Source of the DNA: a plasmid | Sequence record: NZ_CP102531.1 | Direction: 5' to 3' (one strand) | Length of the DNA stretch: 64,000 nucleotides | Part shown: one piece after another, positions 2,756 to 36,982 of the stretch | Numbering within the stretch: the stretch's first letter is position 1 | How the letters are laid out: every line of letters begins with the position of its first letter | The notes under the pieces: model-generated | The model's database searches: none | What the model was told of the DNA's origin: nothing | What the model saw: the letters and a program-made list of their open reading frames with translations, nothing else | Position numbers and translations under genes: made by a program

Positions 2756-2853
2756 TCTTGCATTGCTTTTACAAGGGTCACAAAGGTGTTCACAAGTGAC
2801 AGTACGAAACTGCCAAATGCTAACATCAACGTGATTGCCTCAGCAACGGACAA
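2734..2853 (-). CDS. candidate type I toxin, Fst/Lpt-like hydrophobic peptide (39 aa from TTG, 30 aa from ATG at 2826)
   Basis: Peptide (L)SVAEAITLMLAFGSFVLSLVNTFVTLVKAMQDNQKDRH has a single TM helix plus charged C-tail like Fst-family toxins; AAGGAGG RBS 7 nt upstream of the TTG; the 5'UTR motif ttaatgacggt is complementary to the 3' end accgtcattaa. Confidence 0.5.
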   Translation of the reverse strand: MSVAEAITLMLAFGSFVLSLVNTFVTLVKAMQDNQKDRH

Positions 2854-3013
2854 ACAGGCACCTCCTTTCACTTAGATTTTGGACGTCTTTCATAGGCGAC
2901 CACCTCTTTGTGATTGGATTTGCCAACCGTCATTAACTTTTCTGCTAATAATATTATAGCATATAAACGGCTATATCCATAGAGCCACAAGGGATATGGC
3001 CGTTTTGGTGTCC

Positions 3014-35100: not shown

Positions 35101-35306
35101 TCAATCGCCCGTTTAACTTGATTAAATTCGGTATCAGTTAAAGGGTATCCCTGCAATTTAGCATAGTTATTGTTATTTAATTTATCACGAAAATTAGCCC
35201 ATAATTGATCCGGCGTCGCACCATATAGGTCTTTTCGTTCCACCCATTGATTGCTTCCAGTCGTTAAGGTTTTAACAACTTCTTTTTCAAACGACAGTTC
35301 CAACAT
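32139..35306 (-). CDS. hsdR: type I R-M restriction endonuclease/helicase HsdR (1055 aa)
   Basis: Walker A TTGSGKT; DEAH-like FVDEAHRSQ; size. Confidence 0.9.
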   Translation of the reverse strand: MLELSFEKEVVKTLTTGSNQWVERKDLYGATPDQLWANFRDKLNNNNYAKLQGYPLTDTEFNQVKRAIEVRTPYEAAKLLAAENGIGKVEVERDDAKLGTVTLELFWKADVAGGKSSYEVVRQAVRPRLAGTQDVDPDRRFDVTLLINGLPLIQLELKKATVELNQAFNQIEKYAQEGKYTGIYSLLQMFVIMTPDSTAYFANAEPDHFNKAFLFNWRTRDNHPVENGLAFTRQVLNIPMAHKMVSEYTVIDQERQSLILLRPYQIYAIEAVMHRIHDHQDGFVWHTTGSGKTLTSYKTAKLAAQDPGVDKVIFLVDRRDLDEQTTSNFSAYAANDDIAINEAQNTGDLMRKLQQNDGKVLVTSIQKLHRAVKKTQAQLATGKQSRFSKTLKQRVIFFVDEAHRSQFGKMQKEIRAAFINSNWYGYTGTPIFNENKKQLKGDLAVTTEELFGKVCHVYNLRDALEDQAVLPFNVEHVTTIGKDTLITRALEKETQRVKARRDKQGRLLSTADEAKIQAKIQAMSVKDLEETYLTPADFETDEHINQVVQYILQKGPRKTSLGHGNYNAILTTSSIEMAQRYYQAFKAAKKTTHNQLDPNWPRIAITYSLSENEDQSAQKHDQMATILKDYNQQYHTNFDLADLNLYNEDVAKRAARREAVFAHLKPDQEINLVIVVRRLLTGFDAPRLNTLFVDRTLAYQELIQAYSRTNRLQNRELKQEGQIVTFRVPAIMEANEREAYKLYSGEGSFNVIIRPTYQQAVLKFQKAVVDLKAIAPTPTAADDLKGTTAKVQFVKAFRQVNQQLNSLSMYNDFTWENSEKAFGIAQPEVESYTGKYLRIKAAVTNQEPEKVPEELAALDFSLAVGSVVLVDYDYLTQLIQDWIDEQQQYTTPDQAQAHMIDYLQNSAKVQASLNKLAETQPQQAQLIREAMPYIEQQMQQSQQQSTPNQVPVALNARELVADYAQRQLVKKTSVFAHTWGLDQTALLRVAREHTVGTDEWHHEQELTQSANLAAALQAQTAAGPKIPAILPLYRIKSQAAWRQFIEHDLAIYLQK

Positions 35307-35731
35307 AAAAACAGTCCTTCCCCCACTTTTAAATTACTCACTAGTTTATTATACGCGAACCGCTTGGCGTTTAGGCTTCATAATTTAATATAGCTGGGAT
35401 AGAATAAAGCTGAAAAAGATAAACAACTAAAAAATAGAAAACTAATATTGAGCTAACCATTAAATTCGAAACCTCTGTTCCAATAAATTTAATATGAACC
35501 TCATAATGTAAATTAAAAAAATATATCGCAATGTTCTTGCTTGCAGTATGTCTCGCTCTTATCTGAATAAGATGACATTCAATCTTATCAACAATATAAC
35601 TAATATAACAAAAGCAAATTAAAACATTCACGAAACAGAATTTGAAAATAACACCAGAGAAAAAATATTTTCAAGCTACTAGAAATTTCAACTATTTATC
35701 ATGACTTTTTTATTTTTTAGCTCAAAAATGA

Positions 35732-35760
35732 TTGACAGATGTCTCGAAATTGTGTACATT
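35732..35760 (+). promoter_or_regulatory. sigma70-type promoter for the cys leader/cysK operon (TTGACA-17nt-TACATT)
   Basis: Consensus -35 and near-consensus -10 with 17-nt spacer, read from the sequence. Confidence 0.55.
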
Positions 35761-35787
35761 AATCACAATAAAAATTTCGGAGGTGTC

Positions 35788-35865
35788 ATGATGAGTCAAT
35801 CAATGTTTAATGCGATTAATTGTTGCTGTCGAACAACGCGTTTTTGGCGATGTTCGGCCTGTTAG
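35788..35865 (+). CDS. Cys-codon-rich leader peptide (25 aa: MMSQSMFNAINCCCRTTRFWRCSAC)
   Basis: GGAGGTG RBS 3 nt upstream; five Cys codons including a tandem TGT-TGC-TGT triplet; followed by an intrinsic terminator and then cysK. Confidence 0.5.
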   Translation: MMSQSMFNAINCCCRTTRFWRCSAC

Positions 35866-35933
35866 CATTGACGTTTTTTGGGAAATCATGACCTAAAAAG
35901 AGTTCAATGTCCACTTGGCTGGAGTTGAACTAA

Positions 35934-35975
35934 GGGCGCGAAAATTCTGGATTTCAGAATTTCGCGCCCTTTTTC
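35934..35975 (+). terminator. intrinsic terminator/attenuator between the leader peptide and cysK
   Basis: gggcgcgaaaattctg-gatttc-cagaatttcgcgccc followed by TTTTT. Confidence 0.65.
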
Positions 35976-36049
35976 TATCTATTGCGGCCATTTCCCCTAG
36001 CATCCCGCCAGCTAAACACTGCTCCAAATGATTAGAAAGGATCTTATTT

Positions 36050-36961
36050 ATGCTTATTCATTCCATTTCAGAACTGATCGGTCATACGCCACTGATTGAT
36101 CTGCAAATCAACATTCCAAATCACAGTCACATTTACGCCAAACTGGAGATGTTTAATCCAGGAGGCAGCATCAAAGACCGCCTGGGCCAATACATGATTC
36201 AAGATGCGATTAATCGTGGTCAGGTAACTGAAGGTGTAACAACAATTATCGAACCTACTGCCGGCAATACCGGAATTGGGGTTGCCCTTGCCGCTCAACA
36301 ACACCATTTGCCAACCATTCTGGTCGTACCGGAAAAGTTCAGTTTTGAAAAACAACAATTGATGAAAGCCTTAGGGGCAAAATTAATCAACACCCCCAGT
36401 GATCAGGGCATCAAGGGCGCCATTGAAAAAGCAGAAGCGCTTCACGATCAAACTCCTAACAGTTTCGTTCCAATGCAATTCAAAAATCCGGCCAACCCTG
36501 ATACTTATTATCACACTCTGGCACCAGAGTTGCTTGACGACCTCAATGACCCAATTGACGCCTTTGTTGCCGGTGCGGGCAGTGGTGGGACATTTGCAGG
36601 CGTCGCTCGTTACTTAAAGGAGCAGAATCCGGCGACTCAAACCATCGTTGTGGAACCTGAAGGCTCAATTCTAAATGGTGGGCCTGCCCATCCCCATCGG
36701 ACTGAAGGCATCGGTGTTGAATTTGTCCCACCATTTTTTAAAGATGTTCAAATCGACAAAACGTTAACAATTGCCGATGCCGACGCCTTTCATCAAGTTA
36801 AGGAGCTTGCCAAGAAGCAGGGATTATTCATTGGCAGTTCAAGCGGGGCTGCTTTGGCTGCCAGCTTAAAGGTTGCCAAGGCACTTCCCGAGAATAGTAC
36901 CATTGTCACAATTTTTCCAGATAGCAGTGAACGTTACATGAGTGAAAATATTTATGATTAA
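36050..36961 (+). CDS. cysK: cysteine synthase / O-acetylserine sulfhydrylase (PLP-dependent, 303 aa)
   Basis: PLP-fold cysK/cbs family motifs (K in SIKDR; GNTGIG; GSSSGAA). Confidence 0.85.
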
Positions 36962-36982
36962 AAATAAAGTGAGGTTATTAAA

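Follow-up and report, generated by a model that had tools for sequence, protein, structure and literature searches.

What senses cysteine in front of the cysK2-ctl1-cysE2 operon, which lets dairy lactobacilli make cysteine from methionine in milk and shapes the sulfur flavor of cheese? The operon lies on a 64,000-nucleotide (nt) stretch of Lacticaseibacillus plasmid DNA (record NZ_CP102531.1; this whole stretch is called the window below), behind a leader at positions 35732 to 36049. Over 35700-36060, the sequence matches pLC1 of Lacticaseibacillus rhamnosus Lc 705 and several L. paracasei plasmids at 100% identity, and the operon is the cluster known from the literature. In L. paracasei FAM18149, its expression is higher in cysteine-deficient medium (Wuthrich et al. 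2018, PMC6004538). The same study reported very high coverage of the 5' untranslated region (5'-UTR), which it likened to that of S-box and T-box leaders, found no T-box or S-box at the operon, placed a rho-independent terminator over the palindrome AAGGGCGCGAAA-N16-TTTCGCGCCCTT, and described the mechanism of regulation as "yet to be discovered." As quoted there, Liu et al. 2012 had reported this palindrome upstream of cystathionine synthase/lyase genes of lactobacilli; it is the terminator of the window. A companion paper (PMC6200037) describes massive induction and a highly mobile cluster, and the small open reading frame (sORF) that concerns us here is mentioned in neither paper.

We propose, with a probability that we put at roughly 0.8, that this methionine-to-cysteine operon is controlled through its leader, acting as a ribosome-mediated transcription attenuator of the classical kind with charged tRNA-Cys as the sensed signal. 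This reading is supported by the sequence elements of the leader, by their conservation across genera, by a fixed geometry between a run of Cys codons and a hairpin (hairpin A), and by the complementarity of hairpin A to the terminator of its own leader. We infer that the sORF is translated, that ribosomes stall at its Cys codons, and that the choice between two folds is kinetic.

A Cys-codon sORF conserved across genera

The upstream elements of the leader are the following; type I denotes the leader type of the window and its close relatives, of which six leaders were compared.

35732-35760, + strand: sigma-70-type promoter, TTGACA (35732-35737), 17-nt spacer, TACATT (35755-35760)
35779-35785, + strand: Shine-Dalgarno (SD) sequence GGAGGTG; GGAGG is invariant in the six type-I leaders, and an SD-like motif precedes every homologous sORF
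35788-35865, + strand: leader sORF MMSQSMFNAINCCCRTTRFWRCSAC, with the stop codon UAG at 35863-35865; 25 codons from the first ATG
35821-35829, + strand: Cys run UGU UGC UGU, the proposed sensing site, invariant in type-I leaders
35932-35976, + strand: intrinsic terminator AAGGGCGCGAAAAUUCUG-GAUUU-CAGAAUUUCGCGCCCUU followed by UUUUU; stem 35932-35949 with 35955-35971, U tract 35972-35976

The promoter agrees with the consensus at 10/12 positions and is the top + strand match within 35300-39800; promoters with a TTGACA-type -35 element occupy the corresponding place in the relatives. Judged from the sequence, transcription would start near 35767, about 20 nt from the ATG. Of the two candidate start codons (ATG 35788 and ATG 35791), the second alone is conserved, with relatives reading ACTATG or ATTATG there, and it has the better spacing (7 nt from GGAGG); because of this, the real start is probably ATG 35791, giving a peptide of 24 amino acids (aa). 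Five of the 25 codons of MMSQSMFNAINCCCRTTRFWRCSAC specify Cys, those beyond the run being at 35851-35853 and 35860-35862. The terminator has 17 pairs and a predicted energy of -26.0 kcal/mol; a simple terminator scan of the sequence does not list it. The cysK ATG (36050) follows 73 nt past the U tract, and the cysK SD (about 36036-36041) lies 55-60 nt beyond the terminator and outside the leader folds. An earlier note on this DNA had picked out the promoter at 35732-35760, a leader ORF with a GGAGGTG ribosome-binding site and five Cys codons in 25, three of them consecutive, a terminator at 35934-35975 with cysK about 75 nt on, and a hairpin upstream of the terminator at about 35902-35931. 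The promoter and the ORF are present as it described them, its terminator differs from ours by no more than 2 nt, and the hairpin is real (35901-35931).

As bare DNA, TGYTGYTGY is overrepresented in the window, with 20 occurrences against 6.8 expected, a number reached in no shuffle; only at 35821 does it encode Cys-Cys-Cys within an ORF whose start codon follows an SD. Nearly all of the occurrences lie in Cys-frame ORFs that do not have such a start. Among the other SD-led sORFs of 8-60 aa in the window (n = 329), two consecutive Cys codons (CC) are found in 6 and three (CCC) in 1.

Our first protein search, with the CysK of the window as the query, retrieved relatives of at least 84% identity only, whose leaders are near-identical and hence uninformative. 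A second allele of the cluster, with a CysK about 85% identical, is present on pLBCZ-1 of L. casei ATCC 393, in Pediococcus pentosaceus, and in Lentilactobacillus hilgardii. Identity to the window is 90-94% across the leader core (SD to terminator U tract), as against 60-65% in the promoter region, 56-57% in the spacer past the terminator, and 47-51% at cysK third codon positions. The excess of the leader core over the third positions and the flanks (56-64% identical) indicates that the whole leader of about 200 nt is under purifying selection. Within the sORF, the type-I alleles differ by four substitutions, all nonsynonymous (S3 to T or N, N8S, and R18L), with the three Cys codons unchanged in every allele, suggesting that it is something other than the peptide sequence that is conserved.

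A tblastn search of plasmid records recovered more distant CysK relatives (61-63% identity) in Limosilactobacillus fermentum and Enterococcus faecalis. Upstream of both genes lie a terminator and an SD-led sORF in which three Cys codons follow one another; outside this run, their peptides are unrelated to that of the window. With these two proteins as queries, we obtained ten more loci, and one further locus (L137) came from a metagenome scan. All 16 loci examined with this type of cysteine synthase (61-87% identity) have an SD, a Cys-run sORF, and a terminator. They span Limosilactobacillus, Ligilactobacillus, Loigolactobacillus, Lactiplantibacillus, Oenococcus, Paucilactobacillus, Secundilactobacillus, Companilactobacillus, Leuconostoc, Lentilactobacillus, and Pediococcus, together with two Enterococcus species, one Bacillales genome, and one metagenome contig. 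Across this range, the sORFs have 24-45 codons, of which two or three consecutive Cys codons stand at codons 11-17, and the terminator follows 104-165 nt past the Cys run (16/16 loci in each case). Apart from the Cys run, the peptides of different lineages are unrelated, as can be seen from MRKFNSVELNTCCCEAYQLRFTFWYADNLF (Ligilactobacillus salivarius), MFNLTFVNASVCCCVPRLSRYTDCATQK (Loigolactobacillus coryniformis), MILAPAYLNSCCCEPRLTRFTGCCV (Oenococcus oeni), MTPVHLTMQMTCCSTTRFRCCTAC (Leuconostoc rapi), and MTISNHKELNRCCCMVLKSSILFVMSIDSPSYS (Enterococcus durans). The earlier note had asked whether a Cys-rich leader is conserved in homologous clusters, and these loci answer in the affirmative.

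The metagenome scan, made with a CysK alignment, returned almost exclusively distant CysK proteins (37-48% identity), L137 being the one true relative, and the rest served as a negative control. In 70 upstream regions of distant cysK genes, an SD-led sORF with CC was found in 3 and one with CCC in 0 (Fisher p = 1e-14). A scan of a genome collection for the terminator palindrome (AAGGGCGCGA-N(8-24)-TCGCGCCCTT) gave at least 80 loci, with no Lactobacillales among the matches listed; we rejected these loci as relatives, the matches listed being generic GC-rich terminators of soil and marine bacteria.

Predicted terminating and antiterminating folds

The minimum free energy (MFE) fold of 35774-35979 is the terminating state, at -77.9 kcal/mol, and consists of the stems P1a and P1b, hairpin A, hairpin B, and the terminator. 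The leader is more structured than dinucleotide shuffles of it (z = -4.7). The elements of this fold and of the predicted antiterminator that competes with it are as follows.

35782-35813, + strand: P1 5' strand in the MFE fold; P1a 35782-35792 (part of the SD and the AUGs), P1b 35796-35813 (first sORF codons)
35825-35862, + strand: hairpin A, the anti-antiterminator (segments 1:2); 35825-35839 with 35847-35862, core 35828-35839 with 35847-35858
35865-35894, + strand: P1 3' strand, just past the stop codon; 35865-35881 with P1b, 35885-35894 with P1a
35901-35931, + strand: hairpin B, adjoining the terminator; 35901-35913 with 35920-35931
35838-35882, + strand: predicted antiterminator 5' strand (top and 3' arm of hairpin A, stop codon, and post-stop CAUUGAC region)
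35892-35939, + strand: predicted antiterminator 3' strand (both arms of hairpin B and the first 8 nt of the terminator 5' arm)

The terminating fold is kept in the six type-I leaders, where 92.7% of cells hold standard pairs as against about 40% with slid partners; the figures are 97% for hairpin A and 92% for hairpin B, and four pairs of P1a have compensatory changes on both sides. Hairpin B has a structural counterpart of different sequence in L134.

In the window, the second base of the run's last Cys codon is where the 5' arm of hairpin A begins, and the hairpin has an energy of -15.8 kcal/mol (z -3.7). We folded 38 nt from the last Cys codon of each leader and found that in 13/13 leaders tested a hairpin of 25-32 nt begins at nt +1, the second base, of that codon, with energies of -12 to -19 kcal/mol and a mean z of -3.7. 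The arms are lineage specific (GUGGAGCGCG/CGCGGCUCCAC, GUGAAGCG/CGCUUCAC, and GCAGUACAACA/UGUUGUACUGC being examples). An alignment of this region in 12 leaders with MAFFT and RNAalifold misaligned three of them by one codon and gave a consensus of 6 pairs only; per-sequence folds were used in its place. Given this start, hairpin A would be unzipped by a ribosome that awaits Cys-tRNA at the run, with the 5' arm held in the mRNA channel, where segment 1 lies in textbook attenuators; a footprint extending 12 nt past the A site covers that arm.

To imitate the stalled state, we cut each leader just before the 3' arm of its terminator and masked the 31 nt surrounding the Cys run. Under these conditions, pairing between the top of hairpin A and the terminator 5' arm was predicted in most lineages, as in these combinations (hairpin-A region with terminator 5' arm):

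GCGUCUUACG with CGUAAGACGC
GCGUCUUAUGCGA with UCGUAUAAGACGC
GCACUUUAUGCGGU with AUCGUGUAGGGUGC
ACACGUUUUCG with CGAAAGCGUGU
GCGUCAAUUAC with GUAAUUGGCGC

The mean duplex energy is -20.6 kcal/mol for cognate pairs versus -13.9 kcal/mol for noncognate ones, in which the arms come from other species, and 0/20000 permutations reach the cognate mean. Against shuffled partners, z is -2.3 or lower in 11/14 leaders. That cognate duplexes are the stronger ones means that both strands change together, which is the signature expected of an antiterminator.

In the leader of the window, once the footprint of a ribosome stalled on the Cys codons is masked and the RNA lacks the terminator 3' arm, the predicted refold is one long imperfect helix of 40 pairs, 35838-35882 with 35892-35939, in which CUAAGGGCGCG (35930-35940) stands opposite CGCGUUUUUGG (35837-35847). 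Hairpin B is unzipped in this fold, and the 3' strand of P1 is taken up in it again. The predicted helix is kept in the six type-I leaders (91.9% of cells paired versus 34-56% with a slid partner). A pairing of the hairpin-A 3' arm with the terminator, like the 2:3 pairing of trp, was sought by eye in the window and not found; the predicted partners are the top of hairpin A and the post-stop region on one side and hairpin B and the start of the terminator on the other. The earlier note, which had derived no convincing antiterminator by eye, is superseded on this point by the masked folds and by the cognate pairing at the level of lineages. Its suggestion of mutually exclusive terminator and antiterminator structures is supported by the pairing in 11/14 leaders; in the window itself, the corresponding duplex has a z of -1.2.

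Proposed mechanism and rival explanations

On this model, transcription would start near 35767 and a ribosome would load at GGAGGTG and the AUG at 35791 while the polymerase proceeds. With cysteine plentiful, the ribosome would pass UGU-UGC-UGU, arrive at the UAG at 35863-35865, and cover the antiterminator 5' strand (35838-35882); after its release, hairpin A and P1 would re-form, hairpin B and the terminator would fold, and the transcript would end about 210 nt from its start. By analogy, an unstalled ribosome on the antiterminator strand would be the classical route by which free translation favors termination. With cysteine scarce, the ribosome would stall with a Cys codon in its A site, its footprint holding the P1b strand and the 5' arm of hairpin A, leaving the post-stop segment free together with the top and 3' arm of hairpin A. 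The freed strand would pair with 35892-35939, a stretch covering hairpin B and the beginning of the terminator 5' arm, which would block the terminator and permit read-through into cysK2.

The 3' strand of P1b (35866-35882) is followed by GUUUUUUGGG, and the P1 stem with this U run resembles a weak terminator or pause site. It lies right after the sORF stop codon, and its counterpart in L134 was initially scored as a terminator by our script. Such a site could synchronize polymerase and ribosome, as the 1:2 pause hairpin of trp does.

Several observations weigh against the attenuator. The weakest antiterminators are those of the window leader and of enterococcal-type leaders. In the window, many of the pairs joining hairpin A to the terminator arm are G-U, the duplex, at z -1.2, is not significant alone, and no antiterminator pair has changed on both sides among the six close relatives, because these six type-I sequences vary too little; for both reasons, the antiterminator of the window rests on conservation and on analogy with other lineages. 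Among enterococcal-type leaders, L217 and L218 have no complementarity between hairpin A and the terminator (z about 0), and a third, L128, has a weaker one (z -2.6); in L217 and L218, the sORF is longer, and a candidate antiterminator strand close to its end is paired to the SD region when the RNA is folded without a ribosome. In five leaders, the antiterminator forms in the truncated RNA even with no ribosome present, and often also with a ribosome at the stop codon. Equilibrium folds thus separate the two states poorly, which means that the discrimination must be kinetic. The ribosome-free fold of the window also buries the SD and AUG of the sORF in P1a, so that translation would be blocked if P1 formed first; the partner strand is transcribed about 100 nt later. 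Finally, the exclusively nonsynonymous changes in the sORF fit an attenuator, yet they give no coding signature.

The main control could instead be a DNA-binding regulator of the CmbR, CysR, or CymR type at the promoter, with the terminator a constitutive partial stop and the sORF without a part in sensing. The poor separation of stalled from unstalled folds counts in favor of this rival; in addition, regulators of the LysR type and CymR generally govern the sulfur amino acid genes of streptococci, lactococci, and bacilli (PMC6004538, PMC3766115), and a divergent helix-turn-helix (HTH) or MarR gene lies upstream in two of the loci (L003 and L135). We nevertheless regard such a regulator as an improbable main control: no regulator gene is conserved beside the cluster in the loci examined, the promoter region is among the least conserved parts (60-65% versus 90-94% for the leader), and the proposal leaves unexplained the Cys run in 16/16 otherwise unrelated sORFs, the hairpin starting at the last Cys codon in 13/13 leaders, the hairpin region that tracks the terminator sequence, and the excess of 5'-UTR reads resembling that of T-box leaders (PMC6004538). 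An additional transcription factor may still act at the promoter alongside the attenuator. The leader could also be an undescribed riboswitch or a protein or tRNA site sensing cysteine, O-acetylserine, sulfide, or uncharged tRNA-Cys, with the sORF incidental; an S-box-like or T-box-like mechanism was what the authors of PMC6004538 expected. The type-I leader does show extreme conservation along about 200 nt and strong folding (z -4.7), its multihelix P1/A/B fold looks like an aptamer closed by a basal stem, and the SD and AUG of the sORF lie inside P1a. Across genera, however, what is conserved is the Cys codons and CG-rich stem pieces only, whereas a ligand pocket should keep specific nucleotides, and an SD-led ORF with its Cys run at a set distance from a hairpin is needless for a riboswitch; we consider this alternative quite improbable.

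Known riboswitch classes fare no better. At gathering scores, no Rfam family, T-box (RF00230) and SAM classes included, was found in the leader of the window or in 14 homologous loci, in agreement with the earlier note, which had seen neither a T-box nor an S-box. In permissive mode, 35650-36100 gave no T-box and matched only snoRNA, miRNA, and STnc320 families; we rejected the T-box, S-box/SAM-I, SMK, and other Rfam families as candidates, the weak permissive matches being noise or reflecting the terminator hairpin. The sORF might, alternatively, encode a functional Cys-rich micropeptide (metal binding or redox active, for example), with the terminator merely insulating cysK. The counterpart in E. 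faecalis is annotated as a 45-aa hypothetical protein, and certain attenuator leader peptides are reported as acting in trans (PMC7298713). This we hold to be highly improbable: only the Cys run and the Arg codons lying over the CGCG stem are shared by lineages whose peptides otherwise differ in sequence and length, close alleles show nonsynonymous substitutions exclusively, and the sORF always stands alongside the same operon and a terminator. The interpretation offered in the earlier note, a Cys-codon attenuator, is the one favored by conservation, the Rfam negatives, and the alternative structure.

A further suggestion concerns the product of attenuation. The terminated leader transcript of about 210 nt is abundant in published RNA sequencing data, and the type-I leaders are 90-94% identical against about 50% at synonymous sites; for these reasons, we entertain, as a doubtful proposition, a second role for it as a trans-acting small RNA or a binding platform. 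The trp attenuator RNA rnTrpL and the peptide peTrpL of Sinorhizobium provide a precedent. If true, this role would move with the cysK-ctl-cysE cluster between genera on plasmids and on islands flanked by insertion sequences (IS).

Operon context and comparison with known systems

The annotated plasmid record identical to this region shows three + strand genes, labeled cysteine synthase family, pyridoxal phosphate (PLP)-dependent cystathionine-type lyase, and serine O-acetyltransferase.

36050-36961, + strand: cysK2, the first regulated gene; cysteine synthase family, MccA type (O-acetylserine-dependent cystathionine beta-synthase), from the ORF list and the annotation of the identical plasmid record, the MccA-type naming also from source names of relatives
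36983-38167, + strand: ctl1, cystathionine lyase of the Cys_Met_Meta_PP family, from the annotation and the Pfam family of homologous neighbors
38133-38690, + strand: cysE2, serine O-acetyltransferase; coordinates carried over from L002 (offset 29699), with Hexapep neighbors in relatives

The 3' end of ctl1 and cysE2 overlap by 35 nt. Upstream of the cluster, hsdR, coding for a type I restriction enzyme, lies on the opposite strand. A promoter-like sequence, TAGACA-18-CACAAT, at 38768-38797 (- strand) is located 3' of the cysE2 stop (38690) and directed back into cysE2; antisense RNA has been reported for cysK2-ctl1-cysE2 (PMC6004538). The sole Rfam match in the whole window is a full-length one to rli28, a Listeria small RNA family, at 2783-2968 (- strand; 69.1 bits versus a gathering score of 45).

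According to the records of relatives, the operon is often plasmid borne and mobile. Transposase genes flank the second cluster allele, of the IS3 family on pLBCZ-1 of L. casei ATCC 393 (L001 4176-4873) and of the DDE_Tnp_1 and ISL3 types on both sides in Pediococcus pentosaceus (L006 62-837 and 4670-5153), in line with the mobility reported in the literature. The attenuator-led operon extends into luxS in Enterococcus durans (L217 4267-4725) and in the Bacillales genome (L218 4076-4918), where it also takes in a methyltransferase gene; a coupling of cysteine sensing to S-adenosylmethionine recycling would result there, comparable to that of the clostridial ubiG-mccBA operon. On a short metagenome contig (L138), a Bacillaceae-1 RNA (RF01690, 54.6 bits) occupies 106-171, about 90 nt upstream of a CysK relative of 57% identity; no Cys-run sORF was seen in the 256 nt that this truncated contig retains ahead of the gene. 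The O-acetylserine-dependent cystathionine beta-synthases of gastric Helicobacter, including H. pylori (P0257, P0263, P0270, and others), are 64-67% identical to the E. faecalis protein, as near to it as the enzymes from elsewhere in Enterococcus, a closeness suggestive of horizontal transfer between Helicobacter and Firmicutes.

The enterobacterial trp, his, leu, thr, pheA, and ilv attenuators combine a leader peptide with tandem codons, a terminator, and an antiterminator. The leader of the window shares with them a promoter, an SD-led sORF (theirs have about 14-30 codons), tandem codons for the amino acid of the pathway, a terminator, and a predicted mutually exclusive antiterminator; in both, an anti-antiterminator hairpin overlaps the regulatory codons, and the position of the stop codon would let an unstalled ribosome cover the antiterminator strand. 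It differs in the amino acid, cysteine, and in the host, Lactobacillales, where T-boxes or protein regulators are expected. There is no sequence relation, as judged from the absence of matches to the Rfam Trp, His, Leu, and Thr leaders; the type-I leader adds the SD-sequestering P1 and hairpin B; and its operon is often plasmid borne and mobile.

Cysteine has been linked to leader ORFs in other bacteria. The polycysteine sORFs of mycobacteria (Canestrari et al. 2020, 10.1101/834739) likewise have at least two consecutive Cys codons upstream of cysteine-related operons, whose expression rises when cysteine is low, with sensing via charged tRNA-Cys; the authors state that ORF-mediated attenuation from upstream had previously been undescribed for cysteine. 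Those sORFs are leaderless, have no SD, and act at the level of translation and with no terminator, through a Cys tract that pairs with the downstream SD, whereas the leader of the window has an SD, a strong terminator, and a predicted antiterminator, and its Cys run, rather than pairing with the cysK SD, stays single stranded or forms the base of hairpin A. The motif uORFC-8-2 before cysS in Rhodobacterales (Brewer et al. 2021, PMC8632094) resembles it in its tandem Cys codons (14-15), stems, and terminal U run; it belongs to alphaproteobacteria and a cysteinyl-tRNA synthetase gene, has its Cys codons inside the first stem, and is likewise only predicted. No sequence relation to it was seen via Rfam 15 thresholds, the presence of this motif in Rfam being unchecked. 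Candidates in Actinobacteria (Seliverstov et al. 2005, PMC1262725) likewise place short Cys-run ORFs ahead of cys operons and, in Bifidobacterium longum, ahead of cbs; their runs stand close to the stop codon, the study detected no terminator hairpins, and Rho-dependent termination was suggested. The ubiG-mccB-mccA operon of Clostridium acetobutylicum (Andre et al. 2008, as cited in PMC6004538) is subject to premature leader termination and to an antisense RNA at its 3' end. Going by that citation, it shares with the window the methionine-to-cysteine route via MccA/MccB-type enzymes and a reported antisense RNA; its sensors are a Cys T-box and an S-box, neither of which is in the window leader, where the proposed sensor is the translating ribosome.

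We found no earlier Cys leader peptide in Lactobacillales or Enterococcus in the literature outside subscription journals, and, as far as established, the cysteine specificity, the host clade, and the breadth of conservation are new. The attenuator reading would give a concrete mechanism for the regulation that PMC6004538 left open, with the published motif re-read as the terminator of an attenuator whose partner strand lies just past the Cys-codon run. It would occur in Firmicutes lineages where T-boxes normally sense tRNA, and, with its principle kept and its sequence not in at least 11 Lactobacillaceae genera and Enterococcus, it would offer a natural series for the evolution of attenuators as well as a compact cysteine-responsive part for engineering lactic acid bacteria. 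Next to the known systems, it would be a complete terminator/antiterminator leader-peptide attenuator for cysteine, the earlier cases being translational in mycobacteria or terminatorless in Actinobacteria, while the cysS motif of Rhodobacterales has a terminator and, like the attenuator of the window, is so far a prediction.

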